From IMG/VR virus record IMGVR_UViG_3300045988_068374: a stretch of 43,354 nt of DNA; one strand, 5' to 3'. The DNA comes from a virus. Position 1 is the first letter of the stretch, and each line of letters begins with the position of its first letter. Below, piece after piece: positions 14,204 through 34,159 of this stretch. The notes beneath the pieces are model-generated. The model ran no database searches, was not told the DNA's origin, and saw only the letters and a program-made list of their open reading frames with translations. The position numbers were made by a program, and so were the translations under genes.

Positions 14204-16030
14204 ATGCCTACATATACCACTATTCCCGAAAGCACGTTAACGGAACAGTTAACGGACACTTTCGGAGGCTATAACCACAACCTCAAAATAGGCGACGGAG
14301 AGTTTTACGATATGAAAAACCTCACGTCGGACTATTACCCGTTAATGGGCAACAGGGCAGCACGAAGTCTCATTCAGAGCGGCGTGTTTACGTACATAGG
14401 TGGAATGACTGTAGACAGCAATGGAGATTTGTATATTATCGGGAACAAGTCCGGCGGCCAATATAGCTTAGAAAGACTTTATAAAATATACAAAAGCTAT
14501 TCGGCAGGCGATCCGGATTACAGTAGCCTCGAAGACATGACGGCTATCACATATGATGATTATGCGGATCTGGGAAACCTCTTGTTCTCCGGCAAAGTGC
14601 AATTACTTTTTTTTAACGATGATTTAGTTATATTCCCAACAGGCATTAAAGTGAAAACAAAGAAAAATGCCGATGGCCGTTATTATTCACACAGCCTTTC
14701 AATGTCCAGCCAGGTTGTTATGACTTCTGCCTCATTGCCTTATGTAAAGATAAGCCCGTGCGATTCGGACGGCAAAATTATAACTTCCGGGACAAGTACA
14801 TATGTGCGTATAACCATTGCTACGAATGGCAATGACATTTATTCATCGTATACGTTTCCGGCCGGTGATGCAGTAAGAATATCAACAACTATAAATAACA
14901 AAAAAGACACGATCGGCATAGAAGGGACGCACATAATAGTTAAGTCGTGGGTTGAAGGAAATAACACTGAGCATGTTATAGCCGGTACGATAAGCGCAAC
15001 TCAAACCATTGATTCAAGTGGCAGCATATTTCATATGAGCAGGGATGTCCCCGACATGGATTTTGTCATACAAGCGCAAAATCGGTTATGGGGTTGTCAC
15101 TATAGGAAGTCTGATAGCGCAAACATGAAAGGAATAAACGAGATATATGCCTGCAAGCTAGGAGACGCGACCAACTGGAACGTGTTTCAGGGCATATCCA
15201 CAGACAGCTATAAAGCATCGTGCGGCACACCGGGCAAGTTTACAGGCGCGGCAAACGTTAACGGATATCCGATATTTTTCAAAGAAAACTGCTTCCACAA
15301 GGTCTTTGTATCGTCAACAGGAGCGCATCAGATACAGGATAAAGCGATAGACGGCGTGCAGGACGGCTGCAGCGGCTCAGTCGCAATGGTCGGGAATGTT
15401 TGCTATTACAAATCTCGTAACGGCGTTGTGGCATTTGACGGTTCTACAACATATTCAACAGGGGACAACCTTGGAGATGAGCGTTACACAGATGCTGCCG
15501 GCGGCAGTGCTAACGGCAAATACTATATCTCAATGAAGAGCTCAAGCGGACAGTGGACGATGTTTGCTTATGACGTTGCAAAGGGATTGTGGCACAAAGA
15601 GGATGAAAGCCACGCGATGCAATTTTGCTCAGTGAACGGAGACACTTTATACGTAACGCAGGAGAGCGCTGATAGCTATGAAATACATCTTATAAGCGAT
15701 TACAACAAAACGAGCGCACAAGAGAGCGTCCCGGAGTGGGAAGCTGTCACGGGTCTGCAAGGCTACAGTTATACAGGGCAAAAGTACATCAGCCGTTTCA
15801 ACATGCGTATGATGCTGCCGAAAGGTTCATATATGGACATCTATATTGAGTACGATTCGAGCGGAAAGTGGGAGCATCAAGGACACATCAAGGGAACCGG
15901 CACAACTTCTTTCATGATTCCCGTAAGACCGAGACGATGTGACCATTTTAGAATAAAGCTCACCGGCAGCGGCGAGGTCAGGCTTTACAGCATGAGCAAA
16001 TTGTTTGAGGGAGGTACAGACATTCGATGA
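14204..16030 (+). CDS. large tail/virion structural protein (beta-rich)
   Basis: Internal ATG with a GGAGGG RBS (the track start at 14132 is an Arg-rich extension overlapping the previous gene). 608 aa, Ser/Thr/Gly/Tyr-rich. Confidence 0.6.
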   Translation: MPTYTTIPESTLTEQLTDTFGGYNHNLKIGDGEFYDMKNLTSDYYPLMGNRAARSLIQSGVFTYIGGMTVDSNGDLYIIGNKSGGQYSLERLYKIYKSYSAGDPDYSSLEDMTAITYDDYADLGNLLFSGKVQLLFFNDDLVIFPTGIKVKTKKNADGRYYSHSLSMSSQVVMTSASLPYVKISPCDSDGKIITSGTSTYVRITIATNGNDIYSSYTFPAGDAVRISTTINNKKDTIGIEGTHIIVKSWVEGNNTEHVIAGTISATQTIDSSGSIFHMSRDVPDMDFVIQAQNRLWGCHYRKSDSANMKGINEIYACKLGDATNWNVFQGISTDSYKASCGTPGKFTGAANVNGYPIFFKENCFHKVFVSSTGAHQIQDKAIDGVQDGCSGSVAMVGNVCYYKSRNGVVAFDGSTTYSTGDNLGDERYTDAAGGSANGKYYISMKSSSGQWTMFAYDVAKGLWHKEDESHAMQFCSVNGDTLYVTQESADSYEIHLISDYNKTSAQESVPEWEAVTGLQGYSYTGQKYISRFNMRMMLPKGSYMDIYIEYDSSGKWEHQGHIKGTGTTSFMIPVRPRRCDHFRIKLTGSGEVRLYSMSKLFEGGTDIR

Positions 16031-16863
16031 ATATTATTCCACCGCAATCACCTTTATTTAAAGGGACGCAGGAAGAAAACATAGCCGCAATGCAGAGATA
16101 TCTACTGGAATTATCGGATAACCTGCCGTATTTGCTTAACGACAGCATTGCAATTGATGATGCTTTAAGCGCAAGCAGCGCAAATCCTGTTCAGAACAAG
16201 GTTATCAAAGCAGCATTAGATGACAAGCTCAATAAGTCTGACGTTGAAGATAAACTGGACGGAAGCAGCAAAAATCCCGTGCAGAACAAAACCCTTACCG
16301 TCCAGCTTCAAACGAAATTTGATAAATACGGTGGTGATATAAACGGTGATGTTCGCTTGACGAACGTTAGCAGAATGAACACGGCGGCTAAAAAAATAGC
16401 GGTTTTCGATAACAGCAACATTATAGAATACCGCTCTGCCTCAGATCTGGCGGCCGATCTTGGAATTGGTGATGATCCCAGCAGCAGCATAGCAGACTTA
16501 GTATATCCAGTGGGCAGCATCTATATGAGCGTTAACAGCACTGATCCGGCCCAGCTATTTGGCGGCAGTTGGACGCAGCTTCAGGATAGGTTCTTGCTTG
16601 GTGCCGGTACTTCCTATACCAATGGCAGAATAGGCGGTGCCGCCACATGTCAACTAACTGCCGCTAATTTGCCAAGACATACCCACCCCCAATACGTTGC
16701 GACAAGCGGCGGCAGCGAATCAGCCAACTTGGACTATGCAAGCTATTCAACCAGCGCTAAAACGGTTGCCCAAGGCATTCCGACGGGTGCTACAGGCAGC
16801 GGAACGGCATTCGATATTTTACCGCCTTATTTAGTGGTCTATATGTGGAAACGCACAGCATAG
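16027..16863 (+). CDS. tail fibre / appendage protein with phage tail-collar domain
   Basis: SANPVQNKVI and SKNPVQNKTL repeats. C-terminus YPVGSIYMS...FGGSWTQLQDRFLLGAG...GG...LTAANLPRHTH...PPYLVVYMWKRTA is typical of the tail-collar fold. Confidence 0.8.
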   Translation: MNIIPPQSPLFKGTQEENIAAMQRYLLELSDNLPYLLNDSIAIDDALSASSANPVQNKVIKAALDDKLNKSDVEDKLDGSSKNPVQNKTLTVQLQTKFDKYGGDINGDVRLTNVSRMNTAAKKIAVFDNSNIIEYRSASDLAADLGIGDDPSSSIADLVYPVGSIYMSVNSTDPAQLFGGSWTQLQDRFLLGAGTSYTNGRIGGAATCQLTAANLPRHTHPQYVATSGGSESANLDYASYSTSAKTVAQGIPTGATGSGTAFDILPPYLVVYMWKRTA

Positions 16864-16903: not shown

Positions 16904-18061
16904 ATGGCAATCAAGAAAACGACATATGATAGGGATACCGACTATCAGAAAAAAATAAACGATGCTGTTGCCGCTGGCAACTATACGGTAGCAGCAAAAT
17001 ATGAGCAGGCGCGAAACGCGAAAATTCAAGGTGAAGCGCTTAACTATGCCCAGACCAACAAATATTCTTCGTACCTTCCCAAAGAATACAACGGTGTTGA
17101 ATACGATAGCGGCACGGATTATATGAAGAAGATATACCAGGCATTTGGTAAAGGCGATTATACCGCAGCGTCTCAATACGAGCAGCAGCGCAATGCAAAA
17201 ATAGACGGTGAAGGGCTTCCAAACGCCAAGACCAATTACACCTATACTCCGCAGTATGATACACAGATAAATGAGCTTTTCAACAAACTCCTAAACAGAG
17301 AAAGCTTCAGTTACGACACCGAGACAGACCCTTTGTATAAGCTGTACAGGGAACAGTACATTAATCAGGGCAGACTTGCCATGCAGGACACAATGGGTCA
17401 GGCGGCGGCTCTTACGGGCGGCTACGGTTCAAGCTACAGTCAGGCAGTCGGTCAGCAGCAGTATGACGCTTATTTGCAGAAGCTCAACGGCGTTGTGCCG
17501 GAGCTTTACCAACTGGCATATTCGCGGTATCAGGATGAGGGCGATGAGCTTAAAGATCAGTATAACATGTATATGGCAAAGGATGCACAGGACTATGATA
17601 GAGCACGGATAAATTATGCACAGCTACAGTCTCAAATGAATGCGGCGGCAGATCAGGTCAAAGCAATACTTGAGGTTGGCGGCTCGCCTTCTGCCGATCT
17701 CGTTTTGCGTTCCGGATTGAGCGATGAGTATGTGCAGACACTTAAAAACTATTACGCACAGCTTGCGGCTCAGGCGGCTCAGACGGCGGCACGAAGCGGC
17801 GGCAGCTCAGGCGGCGGCGGTGGAAGCAGCAGAACATATTCGAGTGATAAGGATTACAAGGTCAATAAGGACGGAAGCGTGTCGGTCAAGAGAGTCCGGC
17901 AGCTCAATTACCAACCCGACGAGGGCGTTTTCAAGTGGAACGGTAATCAATATACGAGCGTTGACAGTTTGCTGGACGCATGGGAGAAAAAATCAGACCT
18001 TACCAACGATGATATTAGTATTCTCAAACGCAAACTTTATTCGCAGATGGGCAGAGGGTAA
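16904..18061 (+). CDS. virion-module protein of unknown function with an internal ~45-aa duplication
   Basis: TDYQKKINDAVAAGNYTVAAKYEQARNAKIQGE is repeated as TDYMKKIYQAFGKGDYTAASQYEQQRNAKIDGE. Also carries a Gly/Ser linker SGGSSGGGGGSS. Confidence 0.6.
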   Translation: MAIKKTTYDRDTDYQKKINDAVAAGNYTVAAKYEQARNAKIQGEALNYAQTNKYSSYLPKEYNGVEYDSGTDYMKKIYQAFGKGDYTAASQYEQQRNAKIDGEGLPNAKTNYTYTPQYDTQINELFNKLLNRESFSYDTETDPLYKLYREQYINQGRLAMQDTMGQAAALTGGYGSSYSQAVGQQQYDAYLQKLNGVVPELYQLAYSRYQDEGDELKDQYNMYMAKDAQDYDRARINYAQLQSQMNAAADQVKAILEVGGSPSADLVLRSGLSDEYVQTLKNYYAQLAAQAAQTAARSGGSSGGGGGSSRTYSSDKDYKVNKDGSVSVKRVRQLNYQPDEGVFKWNGNQYTSVDSLLDAWEKKSDLTNDDISILKRKLYSQMGRG

Positions 18062-18076
18062 TATGAGGTATAATGA

Positions 18077-21000
18077 ATGGCTAAAAAAATCAACAGGGAA
18101 GAAATAAAGGCCGAAGTAAAAAGACGGCAGCAAAACGCAGCGAGAGATTATGCCGAAAAAGCCGATTTGATAGCCGCCGGTTATAAAACCGCAAAAACAA
18201 ACAGCGCCTCCGGCTCTGCCGGTAAAAAGCCAATAGGAGCAAGCACTTCCAAATCGAACGTACTTTCTCAGATCGATGAGATACGAAACGAGCTCGGCAG
18301 CAGGAATAAACTTAGCGCAGATGCGCTTATTGCCAATAATCCGGCGTATGTATACACAAAAGCATACGGCGACGGGAAAACGGGTGCGGCGGCGAACAAG
18401 CCGGTAAAGGGCACGGCGACACCTCGCAGCCGCTTTGAGCCTGCCGACACCGGCAGACCGCTTGGCAGAGCATCGGCGCAAAGGGCTTTTACGTCCACGC
18501 CCACGGGCAATTTCAAGGGCGAGGCGGTTTTGAAGAGCGCACTTTCTTCAACGGGCGCGGCCTATAAGAAGCTGGGCGCGGATGTTACGTCCTCAACCGG
18601 CAATCTTTCAATGGGTGAGAGCGCACGGGCGGCGATAGGCGAGGCCAAGACTGCGAAAAAAGAGGGCAGGCAGGTCAAGCCGGGGCAGGCCCAGCGCAAG
18701 GCGGAGCAGGACAAGATAAAAAGCTTTAATGACGGCTGGGCAGGAGACTTCAAGCAAAAGCTGCTGGAAAGCGCCGAGGAAAGCTCAAAACGTGCGTATG
18801 AGTACGAGCAGGAAGCTAAAGAGGGCTTGGGCAAATTCGGTCAGGGCGTTGTTGACTTCGGCATAGCGGGCGCACAGTTTGCCGGTGATGCGCTGCTTAA
18901 CGCTGTTGCGCCCGGCACAGGTCTTGCGGCAATGGCAGGACGAGCATACGGTTCTGCCTCACTGGACGCACAGCAACGCGGTCTGAGCGAGGGTGAGCAG
19001 CAGATATCCGGCTTAAAGAGCGCGGCTATCGAAATGCTCACGGAAAAGCTTTTCGGTTCGGTCTCCAAGGTCGCATACGGTAAGGGCATTATAAAAAACG
19101 AAAGCCTTGTCAACAGCCTTGTAAACCGCCTTGCAAAGACGGACAGAGGCCGCACGGCGCTCAAGGTTTTAGTCGGCGCGAATGAAGAGGGCTTGGAGGA
19201 AGTGCTCTCAGATATCCTCAATCCTATCGCAGACCGCATACTCAAGCTTGATGACGGAAAAGGCGACTGGTCAGACCTTGCCGATGATTTTGACACTCAG
19301 CAGATGCTTGAGGACTACATCATAGGCGGTGCGCTCGGCCTCGTGGGTGCCGGCACAAACGTTGTGAGCGGCCAGTACAGAGCCGAGAACGCACAGCAGA
19401 GGGCGTATGAGGAATATCAGCGCCAGTTAGTCAATGCCGGTCTTGCCACAGAGCAGGGCGGCGACGCACAGCTTACGGCAGAGAAGTATAAAAACATCCT
19501 CGATCAGAGCACACAGCGCGGCAAGCGCAACCTCAGTGATAAGGAAACAGCAAACCTTGAGAGTTTGATACGCGGTACATATGCTCAGAAGGACGCAAGC
19601 GACGTAAGCACACGCCTTGCGCAACTGGGTACGGATGCTTCGGAGCAGACCGTAAATGCCATAGTCAAGGCCGTAAACGGCGAAACACTCAGCAGAGCGG
19701 AGCAGAAAGCATTTGATGCAAACCCATATTCTCAGCGCGTCGTTAACGAAATGCTCGACACAGAGGGCGTGACAAGCAACGAATGGTACGCAGACAGGGC
19801 AAGTGCGCAGAGCTTCACGCCGGAGGTCAGCAGCGGCATCAATATAGAGCAAGCACAAAATGTCCTTAACACCAGCACGGCTAACAATCCCCAATTTGTA
19901 AACAGCATGGCGCGGCAGTACGAAGTTGCGCCGGAAGTGGTCGAGCGCACATATAACCTCAATCCGACTGCACCGCAGGCGTTTGAGACGGCGTTTAACG
20001 CGGTTTATCAGATGGGACAGCAGGGGACGGACAAGGCCGCGCTCTACAAAGTGCCCGTGCTCAACACTGCACAGGCGAACATTGCGTATCAGATGGGCGC
20101 AGACAGCGTTAACGCGGCAGATGTGAGCACAGAAGCGCCCACACAGGCGGCAACTGTTCAGGCGGCAGCGCCGGTCACTATCAATAACACACAGGAGGTA
20201 AACGAGAATGGAGTACGTATACACAACGTCGCGGAGCGGATTAACGGTCAGAATACCGAAGGACAGATACGCGGAGTGGAAACAGGCGCAGGAGAAAATG
20301 TCGCCGGAGGAAGTCAAAAAGAACAAGGCGGCATTGGCACGGCTCAAATCAAAGCTGGCGAAAAAGTAAGCTACAAGGGCAAGCAGCAAAAGGGCGTTTA
20401 TTATGCCGCAGAGGACACCGAGGACATGAAAAAAGGCCGCGAGCTCGCGGAGAGCTACGGCTATAAGGTCATGTATTTTGTTGGCGGCAATATCCGCTAT
20501 GCCGGCGGCGAGTTCAGAGGCGTTGTTGACACGGCAAACAAGACCGTCATGGTAAGAGCGGATCATCCCGACTACACCGCAGAGCAGATAATGCGCCACG
20601 AGATGGGGCATGCGGCGTTTGAAAACGGCGATCTGAGCTTGAACGAGGCAAAAGAAATGCTGCTTGGCGACTTCACTGAGGACGAACTAAACGAGCTTAT
20701 CGAGATATACAGCAGCGAATACGGCGGCATTCTCAGCACCGAGGAGGCTTTTGAGGAAATCTGCTGCGACGCGCTGGGCAGAATGAACATCTTCGAGGGC
20801 ACGGATTTAAACAGCGAAAGCTACGGGAAAGCACAGGACACCGTGCGCAAATACGCCGCCGAGAGAACCGGCAGCAAGGGCAGAGCTCCGCCGAAAAAGG
20901 GCGGGGTAAAGTATAGCTATGCGGGCAAACACGCGCGGACAGCAGACCTTGAACAGCTTGAAAGAGCTAAACAAATGCAGACGCAAGGTGACGACATGGA

Positions 21001-24000
21001 GAATATCCGCAAGGCTACCGGCTGGTTCAAAGGCCGAGACGGAAAGTGGCGGTTTGAGATCGACGATAGCAAGGCGGAGTTTCGCAGAGACGGCGACGTG
21101 CGGCTCATGCAGGAGGAAGGCTATCGGCGTATGCAGGAGCTTACTGATAAGTGGATAGCAAGCATTAATGAGGGGACGGATTTCACAGAGGCTGAACAAG
21201 CCGAAATGGAACAGCTGGGGGAAAAATACTACGACACTGTGTGGGAAGAGAAATACATGCTGACAGACTTCTTGAAGCATGACGAGCTCTTTGAGGCATA
21301 CCCCCGATTGAAAGGTGTAGCGTTGCAATTTGACGATCTACCAGCCGGTACTAACGGCTTTTTCAGCAAGCGCAGCAACACCATAGTCCTCAGTGATAAG
21401 CTTTTCGGTAAGGAAGCTGATGTGCTGATACACGAGATACAGCACATCATACAGAATTACGAGGGCTTTACAAAAGGTTCAAACCCCCAGTACTGGAATA
21501 ATCGCATGGAAAACGGATATTCCAAACGGTGGAGTACGGGCGAGGAAATGATGCCGAGTGAGCTTTACAGGAACACGGCGGGAGAGATCGAGGCAAGAGA
21601 CGCAGCGAGCCGCCGTACACTGACACCCGAGGAGCGAAAAAATAAAGCCCCCGATCTCGGAGACGAGAATACTGTGTTTGCAGAGGACGGGGATGGCTAC
21701 GCCATGAGCCAAAGCGAACAGGACAGCGTGAAGGAACAGCTGCGGGAGCATCAGGATGCGCTGAACAATATGAAAGCCGTCGCCACAATTCGTGATAACG
21801 GCTGGAGAGGCATGAGTACCGGAGCGTTCCGGCAGAAGATCGTCAACAATCTGAAGAAGACAGGCTACCGCGTAGATAATCCGAGCATCGGCGTGATTGT
21901 CTTCGACGAGAAGCTGCTGAACCGAAGCTTAAATTACATTCAGACAGATGCGGAGGCGGCGGCATATCAGGCGCTGCCAATGGTGTTGAAACGCGGCATT
22001 GAGATCAGTGAGCATGGCAACCACAAGGGGAGAGACTATGAAACACTGACTATCGCAGCCCCAGTGGAGCTGAACGGAAAACGTGGAAATATGGCGGTGG
22101 TGGTGATGAAAACCAAGGGCAACCGCTATAAGGTGCACCGCATTCTGACCCCGGAGGGCACGGCTTTTGCGCTGCCGGAAATGACTAACGCAGAGCCTAC
22201 CACCGTCGGGGCTTTCACCAACGTAAGTCAAACGTTGGGAGGGAGCGCACCGGCCATCAGCTCTGCGTCTGAAAACAGTATACCTACAAGCAATCAGTCT
22301 GTCAAGCGCAATTATTCCCGCGAGCCGGAAAAGCTTAACGAGCTGCGGCGGCAGAATGAGCGGAAGCTTGCGCAGGCTACGGCAGAGGATGCCGCAAACG
22401 AGAACGAGCGCGGCCTTATACGCGACTATCAGAAGCAGTACAGCAAGGTCGAGGACATACGCGAAAAGCTCAGTGCGGCACAGCAGACGCTTACAGAGGC
22501 CGAGGACAGCGGCGCGGACTACGACACCACGACCAAGGCAAAAAACCGTTTTACGCTGTTGAGCAAGCAATATGCGCGAGAGCACCGCAAGCTTAACGGC
22601 TACGGCAGCACAAAGGCGCTTCAAAATGTGCTTGAGAGAGTCAGCGCAAGAACATCTAAGGATGCAGAGCATATTGACAACCGCAATTTCTCAAACGTGG
22701 GCGACCGAAGCCTAAAGCCGTTTCAGATGGAGCACCCGGAGCTGCACAAATATTATGAGGACATGGCGCAGACCGTGCTTTATGATATCGGAATGGCAAC
22801 TCAATTCCGTACTACGAACGGCTATCCTAAAACCAAGTTCACCGACGGCTTTAAGCGTGCGCTGGGCGGCAGTTCGTTTAATGACGGGCTTCAAGCGCTG
22901 CTCGACATTTCAAACGATCAGGGCAGCGAAAACTATGCTTTGGCAAAGCGCATGGAGCTGTTTTTGGACGATCTTCTCACCAACGGCTACAAGGGCGCAA
23001 GCGGCAACGCCGAGTACATACGCGCTAAAGAAAACATATCGGGCGGTAATACTGTGTGGGAAAACTTCCTTGAGGAAAACAGCCTTGCTATCGCGGATGG
23101 CCTGATAACGGAAAAGGAGCTATATAAGGAGTTTACACAGATGCGGTCTGACCTGCCGGAGGGCATGGGCGCAGCTTCCGCCAACTTCACGGGCGAGGAG
23201 GCTGTAGGCGAGCGCTGGGTAACAGAGGCTCAGGGCGAGGGCGACAGCGCCCTGCACCCGATAAGCAAGGAGCAGGAAGCAAACCTCGCCGAACAGCAGC
23301 ACAGAGCGCCGCAGGAGATACCCAAGAAAGATCTGAACGGCAAACTCACAAGCAAGCACGTTTCCACCATAGCCAACAGCGGCATGACACCGGCTGAATT
23401 CTCCGACGCGCTGAGAGAGGATGCGGCACTGGGTAAGTTCTCGCACATTGCATACTCCGACGAGGAAGCGCTTAAAAAGGCCGAACGCGCTATCTCTGAC
23501 GACGGCTGGGATCAGGCGCTTGCAAACTACAAGGCCGAGATAAACAGCGGCAGAGTATCGAAGGACAACACTGTTATGGGCATTGCCCTTTACAACAACG
23601 CCGTCAACAGCGGAGACTACGCAACGGCAATGGACATTGCCTCGCTCATGGTCAAAAACTCCACGAACACGGCGCAGTCATTGCAGGCCATGCGCATTCT
23701 CAACAAGCTCTCGCCCGAATGCAGACTGTACCTTGCGGCAAAGTCGATAGAGAACATCGAGGAAGACCTCAACGAGCGATACAAGGACAACAAGGCGGAT
23801 ATCCATGTTGACAAAATCCTTTACGATGAGTATGCCAAGGCGCTCAGGCAGGGCAATGAGGACGGCATAAAAACCGCGTGGGCGAACATAGAGCAGAGCG
23901 TAGCACAGCAGATAAACGCGACATGGTACGAAAAGCTCAACAACTTCCGCTATCTCGCTATGCTGGGCAATCCGAGAACGCATGTCCGAAACATCGTAGG

Positions 24001-25765
24001 CAACGCATTTTTCGTGCCCGTCAGAGCTGTCAAGAACACGATAGCATACGGCCTTGAGAATATAGCCGACGCGAAGATAAACGGCGGCATAGAGCGAAGC
24101 AAGGCAATGCTCAACTCAAGTAATGCGGCGGATGCGGCGCTTGTCAAATACGCAATGTCGGACTATGAGGCTGTGCAGGAGGTCATACTTTCGGGCGGCA
24201 AGTATGTCGATACATTTCAGGGCATCGACAAGCACAGGACGATATACAAGACCAAGATACTTGAGGCGGCACGCAAGGGCAACTCGGCAGCGCTTGACGC
24301 GGAAGACGCGTGGTTCTGCAAACCCGCGTATGCAAACGCGCTTGCCAAGTGGTACAAGGCAAACGGCATAAGCGCCGAACAGCTTAACACCGGCAATGTG
24401 CCGGAGGAGACGATAATCAAAGCACAGACCATTGCCATCAAGGAAGCGCAGAAAGCCACTTACCGCGATACCAACTGGTTTTCCGCTCAGGTCAGCAGGC
24501 TCGGCAAGGTGGATAACAAAGTTGCTGCTGTGCTCATTGAGGGCGTTCTGCCGTTCAAGAAAACCCCGGCCAATATCTTAGCCCGCGCTGTTGAATACTC
24601 GCCGGTCGGACTTGTAAAGTCCCTTGCGCTGGACACCAAAAAGGTCAAGGCATATGTAAACGGCGACGTTGAAAACGGCATGAGCCCCGCGCAGTTTATA
24701 GACGATGTTTCGGCAGGGCTTACGGGCTCGGCGCTTATGGGGCTGGGTATACTTTTAGCCTCATGGGGCGTTCTGAGCGGCGGTGATGACGATGACGAAA
24801 AGCAAAACTATTTCGACGATCTGAGCGGCAAGCAGAATTACGCCTTGAGCATAGGCGGTCTGAGCATCACGCTTGACTGGCTCGCGCCGGAGAGTATGCC
24901 GCTGTTTGTCGGCGTTGAGCTGTTCAACTCCCTGAGCAGCAAAAACGAGGACAAGGGATTTTTGCAGAACCTCATGAGCTCGGTCATGAGCCTGAGTACA
25001 CCGATGTTTGAAATGTCGATGCTGCAAAGCGTAAACGATCTTTTCGATAACCTCGCGTACATCAAGCAGGGACAGGGTACTTTTAAAATCGTATCGAGCA
25101 TGGCGGCAAACTACATATCGCAGTATTTCCCGACGCTGTTCGGACAGACTGAGCGCTCATTCGAGGAAACTCAGCGCGAGACGACATACATTGACCGCAA
25201 CAGCAAAGTCGGCTCTGAGATACAATACATGTGGGGCAAGATCGCAAACAAGATACCGTTTTACGATTTCAGTCAGATACCGTACATCGACGCATGGGGG
25301 CGCACGGAAGAAACCGGCAATCTCTTTGAGAGGATGCTCAACAACTTCATCAATCCCGCATATGTCAAGAAGGAGCGCCCGACGGAGATCGACGGCGAGC
25401 TTGAGCGGCTTTACGACCTCGGCGAAACGAGCGTATATCCCGGCCGCGCAAAGACGAACACCAAGATAAACGGCGAGTACCTGACAGCCGACGAGTATGT
25501 AAAATATGCAACGACGAAGGGGCAGACCTCATACGAGCTTGCGCAGGGCGTTATAAACAGCGCGGCATATTCCGGCGCATCAGACCCCGAAAAGGCGTAC
25601 ATGCTTAAATATGTCTATTCCTACGCCGATCATATTGCAAAGTACGAGGTCAACAACGACTATTCACTTGCAAAATGGGAGATGGCGGCATACAAGAGCG
25701 CAAACCCGATGCAGGCTATAATCGACCACGCACGGGAATATTACAATCCCGACAAAGAAAACTAA
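18077..25765 (+). CDS. giant (2,562 aa) multi-domain virion / ejection protein of polyvalent type
   Basis: Uninterrupted ORF. Gly-zipper hydrophobic segment around 18844-18955. Two HExxH motifs: HEMGH at 20597-20611 and HEIQH at 21431-21445. Hydrophobic helix LTGSALMGLGILLASWGVL around 24716-24783, followed by DDDD. Confidence 0.8.
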   Translation: MAKKINREEIKAEVKRRQQNAARDYAEKADLIAAGYKTAKTNSASGSAGKKPIGASTSKSNVLSQIDEIRNELGSRNKLSADALIANNPAYVYTKAYGDGKTGAAANKPVKGTATPRSRFEPADTGRPLGRASAQRAFTSTPTGNFKGEAVLKSALSSTGAAYKKLGADVTSSTGNLSMGESARAAIGEAKTAKKEGRQVKPGQAQRKAEQDKIKSFNDGWAGDFKQKLLESAEESSKRAYEYEQEAKEGLGKFGQGVVDFGIAGAQFAGDALLNAVAPGTGLAAMAGRAYGSASLDAQQRGLSEGEQQISGLKSAAIEMLTEKLFGSVSKVAYGKGIIKNESLVNSLVNRLAKTDRGRTALKVLVGANEEGLEEVLSDILNPIADRILKLDDGKGDWSDLADDFDTQQMLEDYIIGGALGLVGAGTNVVSGQYRAENAQQRAYEEYQRQLVNAGLATEQGGDAQLTAEKYKNILDQSTQRGKRNLSDKETANLESLIRGTYAQKDASDVSTRLAQLGTDASEQTVNAIVKAVNGETLSRAEQKAFDANPYSQRVVNEMLDTEGVTSNEWYADRASAQSFTPEVSSGINIEQAQNVLNTSTANNPQFVNSMARQYEVAPEVVERTYNLNPTAPQAFETAFNAVYQMGQQGTDKAALYKVPVLNTAQANIAYQMGADSVNAADVSTEAPTQAATVQAAAPVTINNTQEVNENGVRIHNVAERINGQNTEGQIRGVETGAGENVAGGSQKEQGGIGTAQIKAGEKVSYKGKQQKGVYYAAEDTEDMKKGRELAESYGYKVMYFVGGNIRYAGGEFRGVVDTANKTVMVRADHPDYTAEQIMRHEMGHAAFENGDLSLNEAKEMLLGDFTEDELNELIEIYSSEYGGILSTEEAFEEICCDALGRMNIFEGTDLNSESYGKAQDTVRKYAAERTGSKGRAPPKKGGVKYSYAGKHARTADLEQLERAKQMQTQGDDMENIRKATGWFKGRDGKWRFEIDDSKAEFRRDGDVRLMQEEGYRRMQELTDKWIASINEGTDFTEAEQAEMEQLGEKYYDTVWEEKYMLTDFLKHDELFEAYPRLKGVALQFDDLPAGTNGFFSKRSNTIVLSDKLFGKEADVLIHEIQHIIQNYEGFTKGSNPQYWNNRMENGYSKRWSTGEEMMPSELYRNTAGEIEARDAASRRTLTPEERKNKAPDLGDENTVFAEDGDGYAMSQSEQDSVKEQLREHQDALNNMKAVATIRDNGWRGMSTGAFRQKIVNNLKKTGYRVDNPSIGVIVFDEKLLNRSLNYIQTDAEAAAYQALPMVLKRGIEISEHGNHKGRDYETLTIAAPVELNGKRGNMAVVVMKTKGNRYKVHRILTPEGTAFALPEMTNAEPTTVGAFTNVSQTLGGSAPAISSASENSIPTSNQSVKRNYSREPEKLNELRRQNERKLAQATAEDAANENERGLIRDYQKQYSKVEDIREKLSAAQQTLTEAEDSGADYDTTTKAKNRFTLLSKQYAREHRKLNGYGSTKALQNVLERVSARTSKDAEHIDNRNFSNVGDRSLKPFQMEHPELHKYYEDMAQTVLYDIGMATQFRTTNGYPKTKFTDGFKRALGGSSFNDGLQALLDISNDQGSENYALAKRMELFLDDLLTNGYKGASGNAEYIRAKENISGGNTVWENFLEENSLAIADGLITEKELYKEFTQMRSDLPEGMGAASANFTGEEAVGERWVTEAQGEGDSALHPISKEQEANLAEQQHRAPQEIPKKDLNGKLTSKHVSTIANSGMTPAEFSDALREDAALGKFSHIAYSDEEALKKAERAISDDGWDQALANYKAEINSGRVSKDNTVMGIALYNNAVNSGDYATAMDIASLMVKNSTNTAQSLQAMRILNKLSPECRLYLAAKSIENIEEDLNERYKDNKADIHVDKILYDEYAKALRQGNEDGIKTAWANIEQSVAQQINATWYEKLNNFRYLAMLGNPRTHVRNIVGNAFFVPVRAVKNTIAYGLENIADAKINGGIERSKAMLNSSNAADAALVKYAMSDYEAVQEVILSGGKYVDTFQGIDKHRTIYKTKILEAARKGNSAALDAEDAWFCKPAYANALAKWYKANGISAEQLNTGNVPEETIIKAQTIAIKEAQKATYRDTNWFSAQVSRLGKVDNKVAAVLIEGVLPFKKTPANILARAVEYSPVGLVKSLALDTKKVKAYVNGDVENGMSPAQFIDDVSAGLTGSALMGLGILLASWGVLSGGDDDDEKQNYFDDLSGKQNYALSIGGLSITLDWLAPESMPLFVGVELFNSLSSKNEDKGFLQNLMSSVMSLSTPMFEMSMLQSVNDLFDNLAYIKQGQGTFKIVSSMAANYISQYFPTLFGQTERSFEETQRETTYIDRNSKVGSEIQYMWGKIANKIPFYDFSQIPYIDAWGRTEETGNLFERMLNNFINPAYVKKERPTEIDGELERLYDLGETSVYPGRAKTNTKINGEYLTADEYVKYATTKGQTSYELAQGVINSAAYSGASDPEKAYMLKYVYSYADHIAKYEVNNDYSLAKWEMAAYKSANPMQAIIDHAREYYNPDKEN

Positions 25766-25777: not shown

Positions 25778-25807
25778 GGGTGGAGTTACATGCTCCGCCC
25801 TTTTTTA
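25778..25807 (+). terminator. rho-independent terminator (copy 2 of the repeated cassette)
   Basis: GGGTGGAG-ttacatg-CTCCGCCC followed by TTTTTTA. The 43-nt cassette at 25773-25815 nearly matches 10955-10998. Confidence 0.8.
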
Positions 25808-25838
25808 TTATGCTTGAGATATAAGTGAAAAGGAGGCA

Positions 25839-27422
25839 ATGCCTTTGACAACTATAATGATCGGAAAGGCGCTGGCGGCGGTCACGGAAAACGAGACGCT
25901 TACCAGCGGCATGATAAACGCAAAGATCAAATTCGAGTTTTCCGAGGACTGGACTTCAAACATTTCAAAGACCGCGATATTCACGGCAGGCGACGTGACA
26001 AAGGTCGTGCTCGATTCGTACTGGGAAAACAATGTCTGCTCCATACCGCAGGAGTGCCTTGCAAAAAGCGACGAGATACTCATGGTCGGCATTTACGGCG
26101 CGGACAACGCAAACGTCGTTGCGATACCCACGGTGTGGGCGACGGTCGGCAAAATACGCAAGGGCTATGAGGGCTACGAGGACGTATCGACCGGCGCACT
26201 GCCTATATGGGCGCAGGTGCAGTCTGCTGCGGCGCAGTCGGCAACGGCGGCAAAGAATGCGCAGGACGCTGCGGAAGCGGCGCAGGGAAAGGCTGAGGAC
26301 GCACAGGCGGCAGCGGAGGCGGCACAGGCCAAAGCCGAGACCGCACAGAGCAAAGCGGAAACGGCACAGAGCAAGGCCGAGACTGCCCAGGGCAAAGCCG
26401 AAGCAGCACAAAGCAAGGCAGAAAGCGCGGCATCCTCGGCAGCAGGGTCGGCAGCAAGTGCGGCAAGCTCTGCATCGGCGGCATCGGCCAGCGAGACTGC
26501 AAGCGCACAGAGCGCTCAGACGGCCACGGAAAAAGCATCGGCGGCTCAGGCTGCGGCTCAGGCGGCACAGAGCGCCAAGGCAGACGCCGAGAGCGCGAAA
26601 GCGGCGGCAGTCACGGCAGGGGCAGATGCAGAGAGCGCGAATGCCTCCGCGCAGTCGGCAAAAACCGCAGCAGAGAGCGCAAAAACAGCGGCACAGGCGG
26701 CTCAGAGCAAGGCCGAAACTGCAAACACCTCGGCGCAGACCGCGAAAACTGACGCCGAGGCCGCGAATACTTCCGCGCAGAGTGCCAAGACTGCGGCAGA
26801 GAGCGCCAAGAGCGCGGCGGCAGGGAGCGCACAGAGCGCCGGAACGAGCGCGCAGAGCGCACAGACAAGCAGCAAGCTGTCCGAGAGCTGGGCGGTCGGC
26901 GGAACTGGGACACGAACCGGAGAGGACACGAACAACGCCAAGTACTGGTCAGAGCAGGCACAAAACGCGGCCGGCGGCGGCGTTTCAAGCTTCAACGGAC
27001 GCTCCGGAGCTGTTGCGCCTCAGACGGGCGACTACACCGCCGCAATGGTCGGAGCGGACGCTCAGGGCGCGGCACAGACCGTGCAGGACAACTTGAACAC
27101 CCACGCGCAGAACACCGCCATACATATAAGCGCCGCCGAGAGAACGTCGTGGAACGGCAAGAGCGGAAAGGCGGACTCCTTTACCGTGACGCTGACTGCG
27201 GCAGGGTGGAGCGCAGGCGCACAGACAGTCAGCAACAGCAAGTTTATCGCAAGCGGCTACGCCTATACGGTGTGCCCGGCAGGGGACAGCTTCAAGGACT
27301 ATGCCGAGGCGATGATCTACGCCGACAACGTGACAGCGGCGGGCAAGATGAGCTTTCACTGCGACGTAACGCCCACAAAAAATCTTACGGTCAACATTCT
27401 GAGAACGGAGGCAACGGCATGA
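25839..27422 (+). CDS. tail fibre protein (Ala/Gln/Ser-rich coiled-coil shaft)
   Basis: AAGGAGG RBS. AQSKAET heptad repeats. SESWAVGGTGTRTGEDTNNAKYWSEQA and VSSFNGRSGAV..QTGDYTAAMVGA motifs are common in phage fibres. Confidence 0.8.
   Translation: MPLTTIMIGKALAAVTENETLTSGMINAKIKFEFSEDWTSNISKTAIFTAGDVTKVVLDSYWENNVCSIPQECLAKSDEILMVGIYGADNANVVAIPTVWATVGKIRKGYEGYEDVSTGALPIWAQVQSAAAQSATAAKNAQDAAEAAQGKAEDAQAAAEAAQAKAETAQSKAETAQSKAETAQGKAEAAQSKAESAASSAAGSAASAASSASAASASETASAQSAQTATEKASAAQAAAQAAQSAKADAESAKAAAVTAGADAESANASAQSAKTAAESAKTAAQAAQSKAETANTSAQTAKTDAEAANTSAQSAKTAAESAKSAAAGSAQSAGTSAQSAQTSSKLSESWAVGGTGTRTGEDTNNAKYWSEQAQNAAGGGVSSFNGRSGAVAPQTGDYTAAMVGADAQGAAQTVQDNLNTHAQNTAIHISAAERTSWNGKSGKADSFTVTLTAAGWSAGAQTVSNSKFIASGYAYTVCPAGDSFKDYAEAMIYADNVTAAGKMSFHCDVTPTKNLTVNILRTEATA
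26322..26426 (+). repeat. five tandem 21-nt (heptad) repeats inside the tail fibre gene
   Basis: gcacaggccaaagccgagacc, gcacagagcaaagcggaaacg, gcacagagcaaggccgagact, gcccagggcaaagccgaagca, gcacaaagcaaggcagaaagc. Confidence 0.8.
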
Positions 27423-28771
27423 GCTTAGTGTTCAACATGGTCGGAGGCGGCGGAGACGTAAGGCTCGTGTCCATAGCGGTGACCACACCGCCGGCGAAAA
27501 CGGTGTATGAATACGGCGACAGCTTCCAGAGCGCCGGGATGGTCGTCACGGCGACATACAGCGACGGAGCTTCGGCGGCTGTAACTAACTACAGCATAAG
27601 CCCGACGACGTTTTCAAGCGTAGGAAGCCAAAGCGTCACGATCAGCTACACCGAGCACGGAATTACCAAAACAAGCACAACCGCCGTTACGGTCAATAAA
27701 AAGACCATTTCGGCCGTTCCGAGTCAGAGCGGAGCGCTGACCTATAACGGGAGCAGCCAGTCCCCCACATGGAGCGGCTACAGCGCGACGCAGCTGACAA
27801 TCGGCGGCACGACCTCCGGCACGAACGCCGGAAGCTACACGGCAACATTTACGCCGAAGGCAAATTACCGCTGGCCTGACGGCACGACGACGGCGAAGAA
27901 TGTCACATGGACTATCGGCAAGGCGAGCGGAAGCTTATCGATAAGCCCGACGACACTGACGCTGGACAGCAGCACAACGAGCGCGAGCATCGCCGTCACG
28001 AGAACGGGCGACGGGGTAATAAGCGCCGTGAGCAGTGCCCCGAGCATAGCGACGGCAAGCGTGAGCGGCAGCACCGTCACCGTTACGGGCAAGGCAAGCG
28101 GCAGCGCGACGATCACCGTGAGCGTTGCCGAGGGCACGAACCACACCGCGCCTGCAAGCAAGACCTGCGCGGTGACGGCGAATTTCCTCAACTCCAACTT
28201 TGCGTCAAACACGTGGGAGCAGATAATCGCTGCCTGTCAAGGCGGCAGCGTACCCGACACGTGGGTCGCGGGCGACAGCAAGGCTATGACGATAGACGGC
28301 GCAGACTATCCGGTCGATATCATCGGCAAAAATCACGACACCTACGCCGCAGGCGGAACAGCGCCGCTGACTTTCCAGCTGCACGACTGCCTTAACACCA
28401 CATATGTATGGCGGGCAACATGGGACGACCTCATTACAAAGCTGCCGGAGAGCATACAGAGCGCCATAAAGCCCGTCAGCAAAACGATAAACAACGAAAG
28501 CGTTTCCCCGAAGCTTTTCGGACTTACGGAAAACGAGGCGTTCGGCGCTAAAGTGTATGCGCAATACGCCGAGGGCACACAGTACGCCTACTACGCCGCC
28601 GGAAACAGCAAGATTAAGAAGAGAAACGGCGGCGCTTATGGGTGGTGGCTGAGTTCGGCTCTAGCCCAACAAGGCCTTACTTTTCATATATTTGTGACGC
28701 AAAAAGGCGCAACTGACTCGTCCTTTACGGCTAATGAATTCAAGGGCGTCGCTTTTGCTTTCTGTTTTTAA
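27419..28771 (+). CDS. Ig-like-domain adhesin / putative receptor-binding protein
   Basis: ATGA overlap with the fibre stop (the track start at 27149 is an out-of-context extension). Big_3-like segment VSIAVTTPPAKTVYEYGDSF..AGMVVTATYSDG. Segment LTYNGSSQSP...GTNAGSYTATFTP..NYRW. Big_2-like segment. C-terminus ...WWLSS...GVAFAFCF resembles DUF6273 (from memory). Confidence 0.7.
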   Translation: MSLVFNMVGGGGDVRLVSIAVTTPPAKTVYEYGDSFQSAGMVVTATYSDGASAAVTNYSISPTTFSSVGSQSVTISYTEHGITKTSTTAVTVNKKTISAVPSQSGALTYNGSSQSPTWSGYSATQLTIGGTTSGTNAGSYTATFTPKANYRWPDGTTTAKNVTWTIGKASGSLSISPTTLTLDSSTTSASIAVTRTGDGVISAVSSAPSIATASVSGSTVTVTGKASGSATITVSVAEGTNHTAPASKTCAVTANFLNSNFASNTWEQIIAACQGGSVPDTWVAGDSKAMTIDGADYPVDIIGKNHDTYAAGGTAPLTFQLHDCLNTTYVWRATWDDLITKLPESIQSAIKPVSKTINNESVSPKLFGLTENEAFGAKVYAQYAEGTQYAYYAAGNSKIKKRNGGAYGWWLSSALAQQGLTFHIFVTQKGATDSSFTANEFKGVAFAFCF

Positions 28772-28788
28772 TCCGGGAGGTGTAGATC

Positions 28789-29139
28789 ATGTACGCGATA
28801 AAGGTAAACAACGAAATCGCCGGATATTCCGATAGCTTCGTGTATATCCGGCTGCACACAAACGGCTGCTATGTGCTGTGCGACGAAGCGGAAGCGGAGG
28901 GCATATGCGCAAAGGTGGCAAAGGATTTTACCGACGCGGAGACCGGCGAAACGGTAACGCAGATAGCCGACACCGTATTCCGGCTTACCGATGACGGTCT
29001 GCACGGCACAGAGCCTAAGTGCGAGATCGAGGAAGTCAACGGCGCACAGGTTGTAGCGGACAAGGACAGCGAGCTGAAAAACGCCGTGAGCACCGATGAC
29101 CTTGAAAGCGCCTACAAGGAAGGAGTCAACAGCGTATGA
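28789..29139 (+). CDS. hypothetical protein
   Basis: GGGAGGTG RBS. 116-aa acidic protein. Confidence 0.6.
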   Translation: MYAIKVNNEIAGYSDSFVYIRLHTNGCYVLCDEAEAEGICAKVAKDFTDAETGETVTQIADTVFRLTDDGLHGTEPKCEIEEVNGAQVVADKDSELKNAVSTDDLESAYKEGVNSV

Positions 29140-29579
29140 CAAAGACAGAGGCCATGACCAAGATGAAGGAAAAGGGCGCGGACGATGCGCTCAATCTGCG
29201 CGGACGCGCAAGCACGATGGACGGTACGGCGATAATCGCGGAGGAAAGCAAAGTGCCCGACTTCGACGCGCAGAAGGATTACAGCGCATGCCCTGCCGGT
29301 ACGCCCGTCGCGGACGAGGGGCAGGTGTGGAAGCTTATACAGCCGTACAACGCCGCGAATTATCAGGGCAGGCCGTCAACGCTCCGCGCTCTGTGGGGGC
29401 TGTGCCACACGAAAGACCCCTCAAAGGCTAAAGCATGGGTAGCCCCTCTCGGCACAAGCGGCATGTACATGACCGGCGAATGCTACAAGGACGCTTCCGG
29501 CACTGTGCATAGGTGCTTACAGGATAACGTAGTACACGACGCGGCGGCGCTGCCGAGCGCGTGGGAGGATGCAACATGA
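29136..29579 (+). CDS. hypothetical protein (possible carbohydrate-binding-like C-terminus)
   Basis: ATGA overlap with the upstream gene. 147 aa. GQVWKLIQPYNAANYQGRPSTLRALW pattern. Confidence 0.55.
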   Translation: MTKTEAMTKMKEKGADDALNLRGRASTMDGTAIIAEESKVPDFDAQKDYSACPAGTPVADEGQVWKLIQPYNAANYQGRPSTLRALWGLCHTKDPSKAKAWVAPLGTSGMYMTGECYKDASGTVHRCLQDNVVHDAAALPSAWEDAT

Positions 29580-30277
29580 ACATTACCCCGAAACAGGTGC
29601 TTGAGCTGGCGGCAAAGTACATAGGCTACAGGGAAAAAGCATCGAACAAGGACTTATACAGCTTTGAGGACAATGCCGGACGGGGCAACTTCACGATGTT
29701 TCAGGCCGAGCTCGACAAGGCGAAGTTCTGGAACACGCCGAAGAACGGCTATGAATGGTGCACAAGCTTTGTAGCGTGGTGCTTCTGGCGCATTGCCGGC
29801 AGCGAGGCAAAGGATGTGCTGTGCCTCACCGGGCAGTACGGCGCAAGCTGCGTGAGCTGGGCGAAATACTACGCGGCACAGGCGAGGCTTTTCACCAAGC
29901 CGCAGGTCGGCGACCAGTTTTTCCAGCGCGACAGCCGCGACGGCCTGCCATGCCACACGGGAATTGTCGAAAGCGTGAGCGGCAATACCTTCGTTACCAT
30001 CGAGGGCAACGCCGGAAACGCCGTCAAGCGCGTGACGCACACACTTAACAACACGGTCTACGGCTTTGGTAGACCAAAATATGCAGCAGAAAGCGAGGAT
30101 GAAGAAATGGAAAGATGGAAAACGATAGAGGATGTGCCGGAGGGCTTTTACCGCGATACCGTAAAGCAGCTTATGGCCGACGGCATAATCAAGGGCAAGG
30201 GCAACGGCGTGATCGACCTGACGGAGGATATGCTCAGGGTAATGATCTTCTGCCAGCGCATTATGGGAAAGGCGTGA
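29576..30277 (+). CDS. CHAP-domain peptidoglycan hydrolase (endolysin) with a C-terminal wall-binding-like segment
   Basis: Cys motif NGYEWCTSFVAWCF and His motif LPCHTGIVESVSGNTFVTIEGN. C-terminus FYRDTVKQLMADGIIKGKGNG is SLH-like. Confidence 0.8.
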   Translation: MNITPKQVLELAAKYIGYREKASNKDLYSFEDNAGRGNFTMFQAELDKAKFWNTPKNGYEWCTSFVAWCFWRIAGSEAKDVLCLTGQYGASCVSWAKYYAAQARLFTKPQVGDQFFQRDSRDGLPCHTGIVESVSGNTFVTIEGNAGNAVKRVTHTLNNTVYGFGRPKYAAESEDEEMERWKTIEDVPEGFYRDTVKQLMADGIIKGKGNGVIDLTEDMLRVMIFCQRIMGKA

Positions 30278-34158: not shown

Positions 34159-34159
34159 A

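Follow-up and report, generated by a model that had tools for sequence, protein, structure and literature searches.

A conserved frame with an exchangeable cassette slot in a predicted ejection protein of gut Clostridia phages

The virus record IMGVR_UViG_3300045988_068374 (IMG/VR), a stretch of 43,354 nucleotides (nt) that we refer to as the window, carries one giant gene on its + strand (18077-25765) that encodes a protein of 2,562 amino acids (aa). An earlier note, made by a model from the sequence alone, had read this product as a polyvalent virion protein. Our main result lies beyond what that note could see: the giant protein combines a conserved frame with a single slot in which unrelated cassettes are exchanged by recombination. 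From homology and gene position we infer, with a probability of roughly 0.7, that a temperate, short-tailed phage of gut Clostridia packages the protein in its head as an internal (ejection) protein, which would serve as the frame for exchangeable effectors. We propose that this frame consists of an N-terminal module, N1 (aa 150-480), and an 860-aa C-terminal module, the C-module (aa 1700-2562), with a metallopeptidase domain (Zn1), the cassette slot and a helical linker between them.

A conserved frame surrounds an exchangeable cassette slot

A search of 5.8 billion proteins returned 871 matches to the giant protein, and the counts of close homologues given here refer to the best 120 of these 871. 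These 120 proteins are 2,061-2,825 aa long and are encoded on contigs of mostly ~8-50 kb, many of them near 40 kb. Their top local alignments are mostly 91-100% identical to the query and span, in most cases, just 34-46% of it. Coverage along the query is distributed in blocks: aa 150-940 and aa 1425-1525 are each represented in 119-120 of the 120 homologues and aa 1700-2562 in 116-120; aa 1-125 are found in 21-44, aa 951-1375 in 6-13, and the region of ~aa 1530-1675 in 51.

The variable middle of the protein is flanked by two conserved stretches, ...GRAPPK.GG.[KM][YF]S upstream and [YF]SREPE[RK]LNELRRQNE downstream, the latter retained after every cassette type. In the present phage the upstream junction reads K-Y-S|Y (aa 945-948, 20909..20920) and the downstream junction N-Y-S|R-E-P-E (aa 1412-1418, 22310..22330), enclosing a slot of aa 947-1412 (20915..22312). 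DNA comparison places the boundaries at the same points: when the window was aligned by blastn with a related prophage (L004, 95% identical across the structural genes) and with a contig of a metagenome-assembled genome (MAG; L001), homology was lost at nt 20914 in both and regained at nt 22313 and 22310, respectively, which are the two junction codons. In both relatives the break and resumption points thus fall on junctions of the form [KR][YF]S|[RL]E[PV].

Splitting the variable middle at [YFW]S followed by [RLMKQ..][EQD] delimited 226 pieces, which represent 21 cassette types in 33 arrangements of 1-4 cassettes each among 118 relatives whose frames are mostly 91-100% identical. Comparison of C-modules of equal length revealed that 100% identical 870-aa C-modules carry either cassette E or the set L-M-N-O, and that 99.9% identical C-modules carry either C-F-G or E. 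Because identical or near-identical C-modules are joined to unrelated cassettes, cassette exchange must be recent relative to point mutation. Exchange this recent suggests that selection for diversity is strong, with host defence systems as its presumed cause.

Automated assemblies (sources 'lgn' and 'ena') supplied most of these relatives, and short conserved junctions are the kind of place at which assemblers mis-join, so we considered whether the cassette diversity could consist of chimeric contigs joined at a short shared junction. We judge this very unlikely: the four commonest arrangements are found in 15, 14, 12 and 11 proteins from many independent samples, several proteins are present on multiple contigs and in both NCBI and JGI records, one variant lies in a prophage inside a 130-kb bacterial contig, and the reading frame is intact across every junction. 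The giant gene itself is not an assembly artefact, since 15 public contigs encode the exact protein, as does the NCBI record DAI72993.1, whose public name is 'MAG TPA: IrrE protein [Caudoviricetes sp.]'.

Family scans of the cassettes revealed a varied set of enzymatic and polyvalent domains. Cassette B matches an S-adenosylmethionine (SAM) methyltransferase; C and R match MuF_C; D matches LPD3 plus ART-PolyVal; G, J and P match ART-PolyVal; F matches PBECR5 (204.5 bits) and I PBECR3 (67.9 bits); S and T match LPD3; and K and Q, the latter being the cassette of the present phage, carry LPD23, a zincin and LPD3. The C-terminal part of cassette U matches cassette P (ART-PolyVal) and its N-terminal part has no match; cassette N was left out of these scans. 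Cassettes A, E, H, L, M and O matched no family, with A, E, H, M and O scanned against Pfam, NCBIfam and PHROGs. The commonest of the matchless cassettes are A (201 aa, 30 copies), E (566 aa, 18 copies) and H (154 aa, 13 copies), found for example in the proteins P0100, P0011 and P0004; on their sequences, these three are candidate new effector families.

The C-module resembles internal virion proteins

The C-module (23174..25762) was used to search 1.84 billion representative sequences with HMMER, which recovered 7,135 clusters (50% identity) at E<=1e-3 and 3,317 at E<=1e-30. Among the 150 best matches listed, it stands at the C-terminal end of proteins of ~800-4,250 aa, and all three of its sub-segments were found in 149 of 149 listed representatives. 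A simple search detected N1 in 34 of these 149, and an iterated search detected it in 195 of 260 members of the family. Profile searching also revealed cargo-free forms of ~1,050-1,600 aa that consist of N1 and the C-module, most of them lacking any precomputed Pfam domain. Models that cover aa 1700-2562 are absent from Pfam, NCBIfam and PHROGs.

When the C-module was compared by tblastn with 50,697 phage records, three matches were returned (E 3e-4 to 7e-4): 'internal virion protein D' of Roseobacter phage CRP-403 and of Pelagibacter phage HTVC041P, and a 'hypothetical protein' of CRP-118. In CRP-403 and HTVC041P, both members of the Autographiviridae, the matched gene occupies the position of T7 gp16, between the tail-tubular genes and the fibre gene. 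A hidden Markov model (HMM) built from the 149 family representatives scored 41.1 and 37.9 bits on the CRP-403 and HTVC041P proteins, respectively; the motifs RYLAMLGN..TH.RN and LPFKKTPANIL align in both, and GKQ.Y in CRP-403 only. Both proteins also align with the hydrophobic helix LTGSALMGLGILLASWGVL (aa 2215-2233, nt 24719-24775), which is the sole 19-residue window of the giant protein with a Kyte-Doolittle hydropathy above 1.4 (1.69) and which coincides with a hydrophobic helix in these marine homologues.

Structure prediction pointed in the same direction. An AlphaFold2 (AF2) model of the C-module, computed from a 47-sequence alignment, was almost wholly helical, with a predicted local distance difference test (pLDDT) score of 71.5 and a predicted TM-score (pTM) of 0.55. 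Of the two segments modelled, as the earlier note had proposed, this one was usable; the model of N1 (pLDDT 55) was judged not to be. Foldseek matched the C-module to 51 BFVD entries at E<=1e-3, the top ones being polyvalent proteins from gut metagenomes. Entries named 'Internal virion protein' come next, from Pelagibacter phage EXVC018P (E 1.7e-11) and from three Synechococcus phages, S-RIP1, S-CBP2 and S-CBP3 (1e-9 to 5e-11). These comparisons identify the C-module as a predicted relative of internal virion proteins encoded at the gp16 position, not demonstrably of T7 gp16 itself, and this kinship to Autographiviridae proteins is the best available support for an ejection role. Passages of a review note that gp16 homologues are often matched by size and synteny alone and that the N-terminal peptidoglycan hydrolase is not conserved across them (Swanson et al., PMC8954989).

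Two members of the family differ in context. A 1,241-aa protein (P0152; L012 10001-13726) carries LPD3 and the C-module without N1. Its gene is on a bacterial contig, devoid of phage genes for 10 kb around, and adjoins genes for a SpaA pilin and a group II intron reverse transcriptase; either this is what remains of a decayed prophage or the C-module has been put to use outside phages. A cargo-free, 1,488-aa form (P0272; L011 2607-7073) is the last late gene of a 36.9-kb relative, where it follows a CHAP lysin and directly precedes the integrase, so family members differ in where this gene stands with respect to the lysis genes.

Kinship with internal virion proteins also bears on where the protein acts. 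If it were an external tail component (a central fibre, tail-tip hub or tail-associated lysin), its enzyme domains would act or be shed at the cell surface. The giant gene does lie among fibre-like genes, with a Gp10_C protein upstream and a Big_3/DUF6273 protein downstream, and its zincins could attack the cell wall as has been proposed for the phi24B gp47 metallopeptidase. Against this, the cargo of its relatives (ADP-ribosyltransferases, PBECR RNases and a SAM methyltransferase) needs cytoplasmic nicotinamide adenine dinucleotide, SAM and RNA, the kin of the C-module are annotated as internal virion proteins, and no fibre, beta-helix or receptor-binding fold was predicted, the C-module model being helical almost throughout. 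We consider an external position improbable.

Domains of the giant protein

The giant gene is a single open reading frame (ORF) with an ATG start, preceded at 8-9 nt by a GAGG ribosome-binding site and followed, directly past its stop codon, by a terminator-like GC hairpin and T-run (25778..25810, + strand), as read from the sequence. It occupies 17.7% of the window, in agreement with the 18% first estimated, and every motif quoted in the earlier note was recovered where it had been placed. A megablast search of 23 kb against 50,697 phage records gave zero matches, indicating that the phage has no close cultured relative. Whole-protein scans of Pfam, PHROG and NCBIfam recognize LPD23 and the second zincin only, and sequence searches of the PDB with the whole protein and with profiles of the C-module and Zn1 returned nothing.

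The protein opens with a variable leader (aa 1 to ~160, 18077..18559) that has at least three unrelated alleles in close relatives; blastn detected no DNA homology to L004 over 17984-18559. This variable block also takes in the last 78 nt of the upstream gene (16904-18061), so the C-terminus of its 385-aa product and the leader of the giant protein co-vary; the two may interact. The 385-aa protein contains two internal repeats of ~40 aa each (DY.KKI....G.YT.AA.YEQ.RNAKI.GE.L).

Each of the 120 close homologues has N1 (18524..19516). Two Gly-rich hydrophobic segments lie within it, aa 257-288 (nt 18845-18940) and aa 414-430, as does an invariant acidic motif, NEEGLEE (aa 369-375); the invariant residues of N1 are G302, E371, E374, E375 and G417. 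N1 matches phrog_22978 (E 3e-6), a family of 3,513 positions and unknown function. Within the lineage-specific helical region that follows, an allelic sub-block (~aa 495-607, 19561..19898) interrupts the DNA homology to L004 and exists in alternative peptide versions.

Two HExxH motifs had been noted by eye, against ~0.02 expected from the protein's own composition, which is far above chance, and both proved to lie within conserved zincin domains. The first, HEMGH (aa 841-845, nt 20597-20611), belongs to Zn1 (~aa 745-934, 20309..20878), in which E894 (20756-20758) is the putative third ligand. Across 20 aligned homologues, with identities as low as 22%, residues D829, H841, E842, H845 and E894 never vary, a pattern that marks a working zincin, and we predict Zn1 to be a peptidase. 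Searches of Pfam and the PDB gave no match to Zn1, with sub-threshold zincin matches only; by sequence, Zn1 represents an uncatalogued zincin family that matches no catalogued peptidase family. Zn1 is directly followed by a GRAPP motif (20879..20893), which could be used as the upstream anchor of the slot in 115 of 121 close proteins, and the more general form R[AG]PP trails Zn1 in many distant relatives, occurring 25-40 residues past it in ~15 of 26 Zn1-bearing distant representatives.

The slot of the present phage holds three domains. LPD23 (aa 946-1002, 20912..21082) matches Pfam PF18838 with 90.7 bits against a cut-off of 27 (E 5e-26). The second zincin, Zn2 (21257..21661), contains HEIQH (aa 1119-1123, 21431-21445), GEIEAR (21581-21598) and the YRNTAGEIEARD motif from aa 1164; it resembles PF20573 (DUF6782, a putative metallopeptidase) with 24.7-26.3 bits, just below the cut-off of 27 (aa 1080-1134 in the whole-protein scan), and matches phrog_87 'metallo-protease' at E 3.6e-6. 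LPD3 (~aa 1250-1350, 21824..22126) matches PF18798 with 31.0 bits against a cut-off of 27, surfacing when aa 1209-1414 were scanned alone and not in the whole-protein Pfam scan. The segment GNHKGRDYETL... (aa 1314-1361, nt 22016-22159), first compared with Barnase/EndoU/RelE-like nucleases of the PBECR type, did not bear this out: it matches LPD3, and none of the PBECR1-5 models. Within this phage's own cargo, the sole biochemical function that can be assigned is that of a probable peptidase.

Downstream of the slot, a conserved helical linker, probably a coiled coil (aa 1415-1525, 22319..22651), is present in 119-120 of the 120 homologues. It is followed by an optional domain (~aa 1523-1691, 22642..23149) found in 51 of the 120 and coinciding with a DNA gap relative to L004; in the wider family the domain occurs in 19 of 149 representatives, at varying positions. 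NCBIfam and PHROGs gave no match to it, and the whole-protein Pfam scan gave sub-threshold matches only. Landmarks of the C-module are the PFKKTPANILARAVEYSPVG motif (aa 2159-2178), LPFKKTPANILARAVEYSP (24548-24604), a DDDD run (aa 2237-2240, nt 24785-24796), QNYALSIGG..TLDWLAPE (24833-24892) and IPYIDAWGRTE (25277-25309).

Taken together, the giant protein contains more than the two biochemically disparate domains that characterize a polyvalent protein (Zn1, LPD23, Zn2 and LPD3), two of which, LPD23 and LPD3, are family-specific domains that pass curated Pfam gathering thresholds, and its gene is located among virion structural genes. With ART-PolyVal, PBECR3, PBECR5 and MuF_C in the slot of its relatives, the polyvalent architecture proposed in the earlier note is well borne out. 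The Pfam, PHROG and NCBIfam scans matched no lysozyme or transglycosylase family in the giant protein, and Pfam, PHROG and PDB sequence searches matched no RNA polymerase domain.

Genomic context points to a temperate, short-tailed phage

Family scans of neighbouring ORFs, together with gene calls in a related prophage, outline a late operon that begins with the small terminase (6664-7269), the large terminase (7272-8729), a P22-type portal (8701-10641) and a Prp-type cysteine protease (about 10638-10946; Pfam Peptidase_Prp in L004). These are followed by a 339-aa scaffold-like protein (11240-12259), the capsid protein (12306-13460), several small proteins including a 124-aa ORF (13819-14193), a 608-aa protein that matches phrog_511 'internal virion protein' (14204-16030), a Gp10_C or tail-collar-fibre-like protein (16027-16863) and the 385-aa protein mentioned above. 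The giant gene comes next, 3' of the terminase, portal and capsid genes and 5' of the lysis genes, and is followed by genes for a coiled-coil protein (25839-27422), a Big_3/DUF6273 protein that resembles fibres or receptor-binding proteins (within 27149-28771) and an endolysin (29561-30277). On the opposite strand lie an integrase (34403-35608) and a repressor-like regulator (35574-36221).

Two structural assignments made by eye agree with these scans: the collar-domain fibre, and the N4-type capsid, whose label in public sources is 'N4-gp56 family'. The nearest cultured relatives of the capsid protein are those of podoviruses, Paenibacillus phage API480 (26.5% identity, E 5e-17) and the Page group of Bacillus megaterium (28.6%, E 1e-27); API480 has a short tail of 12 x 8 nm (PMC6937236). 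The capsid and scaffold-like proteins both begin with ..(K/N)WLQLFAD (12306-12345 and 11240-11280). We take WLQLFAD to be the Prp-type cleavage signal of Firmicutes L27 and of staphylococcal phage 80alpha, and head maturation probably proceeds via Prp, which points to a Firmicutes-type host. We make no claim that Prp cuts the cassette junctions, which share with WLQLFA|D only an aromatic followed by a small residue.

A related prophage is integrated within a 130-kb bacterial contig, where it adjoins genes for 3-deoxy-D-arabino-heptulosonate 7-phosphate (DAHP) synthase and SAM synthetase, and the MAG labels of relatives are 'uncultured Clostridia' and 'Lachnospirales'. Gene order, prophage integration, MAG labels and the podovirus relatives of the capsid suggest that the phage is temperate, most likely short-tailed, and infects a Gram-positive gut anaerobe, most likely of the Clostridia. 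The podovirus-like particle envisaged earlier, with the giant protein as ejectosome and cargo, is in this respect supported computationally, as it is by the gp16-position kin of the C-module.

As the longest gene of the window, with a largely helical product, the giant gene might also encode a tape measure, in which case the phage would be long-tailed and its tail tube gene would have been overlooked; some tape measures do carry peptidase domains. We regard this as highly improbable. No sizeable ORF between 6664 and 30277 matched a tail tube, sheath, terminator or tape-measure family, as the first reading by eye had anticipated, and HMM analysis did not assign the giant protein as a tape measure. 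Moreover, a length ruler could not range from 2,061 to 2,825 aa in phages whose flanks are mostly 91-100% identical, and the P22-type portal, the podovirus relatives of the capsid and the match of the C-module to Autographiviridae internal proteins all argue for a short tail.

Gene position bears equally on whether the protein enters the virion. As a non-virion protein of the producing or lysogenic cell, it could be a multi-enzyme anti-defence or superinfection-exclusion factor whose place in the late operon is incidental; P0152 lies outside a phage context, and in L011 the gene comes after the lysis genes and not within the tail genes. We think this less probable than an external tail role, because the position in the late structural operon is conserved across loci, an 860-aa frame that matches internal virion proteins has been kept in thousands of clusters, and polyvalent domains are, in passages of the paper that described them, characteristically tied to delivery by virions or by type IV secretion systems (PMC5512222).

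Several other features of the window stand apart from the giant gene. A Big_3/DUF6273 block (27157-29097) has no DNA homology to L004, L001 or L002, with flanks ~76-94% identical, and appears from these alignments to be a second hypervariable block. The gene at 25839-27422 has an unusually high GC content (0.62), a strong AT skew and tandem repeats of 21/42 nt (26271-26424) that encode an Ala/Gln/Lys-rich coiled coil; its product may be a fibre shaft or needle. Beside the integrase, a segment of ~250 bp (34157-34412) lies in the opposite orientation in L001, L002 and L004, is bounded in the window by copies of AATTTACGACAAAATTTACGACAAC, and has the bacterial flank of prophage L004 beginning just past it; it is probably an attP or arm-site region, or an invertible piece. 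A 24-nt tandem repeat with a unit of about GGCGCATGGCAACAGCTCCGTTAC is found at either end of the window (1-138 and 43213-43354), with ~5.8 copies in each place; the first and last 24 nt are identical, so that circularization would yield a single array of ~11-12 copies. This repeat could represent iterons, a packaging site, or merely the point at which an assembler cut a circle.

Discussion

Our results suggest a model in which the giant protein would be made late and co-packaged in the head, and then be expelled through the portal and tail at infection. The frame would assist the passage of DNA across the wall and membrane, and during its first minutes the cassette domains would hit host targets, perhaps once Zn1 has released them by a cut at or near the R[AG]PP or [YF]S linkers. 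At the level of the population, near-identical phages swap cassettes by recombination at the conserved junctions, giving rise to a fast-changing effector repertoire.

A number of observations weigh against this reading. Firstly, the presence of the protein in virions, its cleavage and its entry into the host are all deduced. Secondly, the C-module HMM gave negative scores against T7 gp15 and gp16, with no detectable sequence similarity; its profile matched no chain among PDB sequences, and Foldseek found no significant match in the PDB (best E 0.25), with a model of moderate confidence. An identity with T7 gp16 or gp15 was accordingly rejected, being undetectable by sequence or fold, and the link to experimentally studied ejection proteins runs solely through the marine positional homologues. 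Thirdly, the protein has one strongly hydrophobic helix only, so that a channel-forming role is weakly grounded. Fourthly, ejection proteins are described in part of a review as lacking in phi29-type phages of Gram-positive hosts (PMC8954989), which leaves the proposed role without a precedent in monoderm hosts. Fifthly, P0152 shows that a family member can occur in a non-phage context. Finally, distant family members show no enrichment of the [YF]S junction motif (12 occurrences versus 7.9 expected in shuffles). For this reason we rejected the motif as a family-wide cleavage signal and treat it as what it appears to be, mainly a lineage-specific recombination linker, with a possible role as a cleavage site.

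A broader reading, which we offer tentatively and hold to be considerably less probable than the packaged ejection protein itself, would make N1 and the C-module the principal ejection-protein family of short-tailed phages of Gram-positive gut Clostridia, a host class with no known ejectosome. The slot would then be a dedicated diversification locus, its cassettes shuffled at [KR][YF]S|[RL]E[PV] and freed after delivery by Zn1 with its R[AG]PP motif, and each strain would inject its own anti-defence or takeover cocktail, with A, E and H as new effector families.

By setting a conserved frame apart from an interchangeable enzyme slot, these results provide a testable model of protein delivery by phages of gut Clostridia. 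The frame is among the largest uncatalogued phage protein families in this analysis, with more than 7,000 clusters at 50% identity. Through the gp16-position link, the ejection-protein concept would come to include phages of Gram-positive bacteria; ejection proteins are treated, in passages of the review cited above, as typical of phages with Gram-negative hosts (PMC8954989). The slot amounts to a collection, assembled by nature, of candidate effectors for injection (RNases, zincins, ADP-ribosyltransferases, a methyltransferase and several unknown domains), and its junctions mark possible insertion points for foreign cargo in engineered protein delivery.

Comparison with known systems

A precedent is gp47 of the Shiga toxin podovirus phi24B, which is temperate and short-tailed. 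This polyvalent protein of 2,811 aa carries LPD5, LPD1, LPD38 and MuF-C. Passages of the report describe it as abundant in virions by proteomics and absent from the cryo-electron microscopy shell, and propose it as an ejection protein (10.64898/2026.04.10.717836). It differs from the giant protein in its LPD domains and its Gram-negative host, and these passages do not report cassette polymorphism.

F116-like Pseudomonas podoviruses (Hollowayvirus) encode a 3,782-aa 'PLxRFG domain-containing protein' (Baskent_P6 XPB66950.1) at the end of the structural module, right before the holin and endolysin. It has in common with the giant protein the unit of LPD23 and zincin (29% identity, E 9e-26, including HExxH and GE.EAR) as well as LPD3 (E 2e-5), and its N-terminus scored a borderline 20.6 bits (bias 17.8) with the N1 HMM. 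The C-termini differ: that of the F116-type protein is NCBIfam NF032893 'tail-700' (784 bits against a threshold of 100), which the giant protein does not match, and neither the C-module HMM nor hhalign (probability 0.12) linked the two. The LPFKKTP motif had suggested that the C-module might itself be a PLxRFG 'tail-700' domain, an idea rejected on these results and on the lack of any NCBIfam match at E<=1.

Among gp16-position proteins, those of marine Autographiviridae (CRP-403 gp34, HTVC041P gp36 and cyanophage proteins) are homologous to the C-module, of a similar size class and encoded beside fibre genes; the two whose context was examined are known as internal virion proteins by annotation only. 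They measure 870-1,330 aa, whereas the giant protein carries ~1,200 extra residues of cargo and peptidase. T7 gp16 and gp15 share no detectable similarity with the C-module; the giant protein also has no recognized lytic transglycosylase domain, and the host is apparently Gram-positive. The N4 virion RNA polymerase gp50 is likewise giant (~3,500 aa), packaged in an N4-gp56-type capsid and expelled in an ejectosome (PMC13434306), and N4-type virion RNA polymerases are listed as polyvalent proteins with a peptidase domain in part of PMC5512222. Unlike gp50, the giant protein has no detected RNA polymerase domain or similarity, and its genome is 43 kb and temperate as compared to the lytic N4 genome of ~70 kb. 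Page and API480 encode ORFs of 1,679 aa and 1,631 aa at the same position as the giant gene, directly before the lysis genes, and gp16 of API480 was detected by mass spectrometry with 71 peptides (PMC6937236). HMM comparison rejected these ORFs as homologues of the giant protein, leaving them as positional analogues only.

An analogy, and only that, can be drawn with polymorphic toxins. These combine a conserved delivery part with variable effectors that recombine at defined linkers, and the variable part is C-terminal and paired with immunity genes. The giant protein likewise joins a conserved, putative delivery part to variable modules that recombine at linkers; its variable part is instead internal and can hold a series of as many as four modules, and we noticed no immunity genes.

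The giant protein follows the strategy of polyvalent proteins (Iyer, Burroughs, Anand, de Souza & Aravind 2017, PMC5512222), set here on a gp16-position frame. In passages of that paper, such proteins are very large, combine several domains of unrelated kinds, have their genes in the midst of virion genes, contain zincin peptidases proposed to process the protein, and are predicted to be injected with the DNA. Domains are held in common: LPD23 and LPD3 here, and ART-PolyVal, PBECR3/5 and MuF_C in relatives. The frame described here (N1 plus the C-module) differs in having no Pfam model and Zn1 in being uncatalogued, and the main text of the paper does not use the terms 'internal virion', 'gp16' or 'ejection'. 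A single fixed slot with exact junctions, swapped between phages with identical C-modules, is documented here and was not met in those passages. Polyvalent proteins and the sequence itself were already public; what is new is the definition of the frame formed by N1 and the C-module, the Zn1 family with its R[AG]PP motif, and the single, sharply bounded slot.

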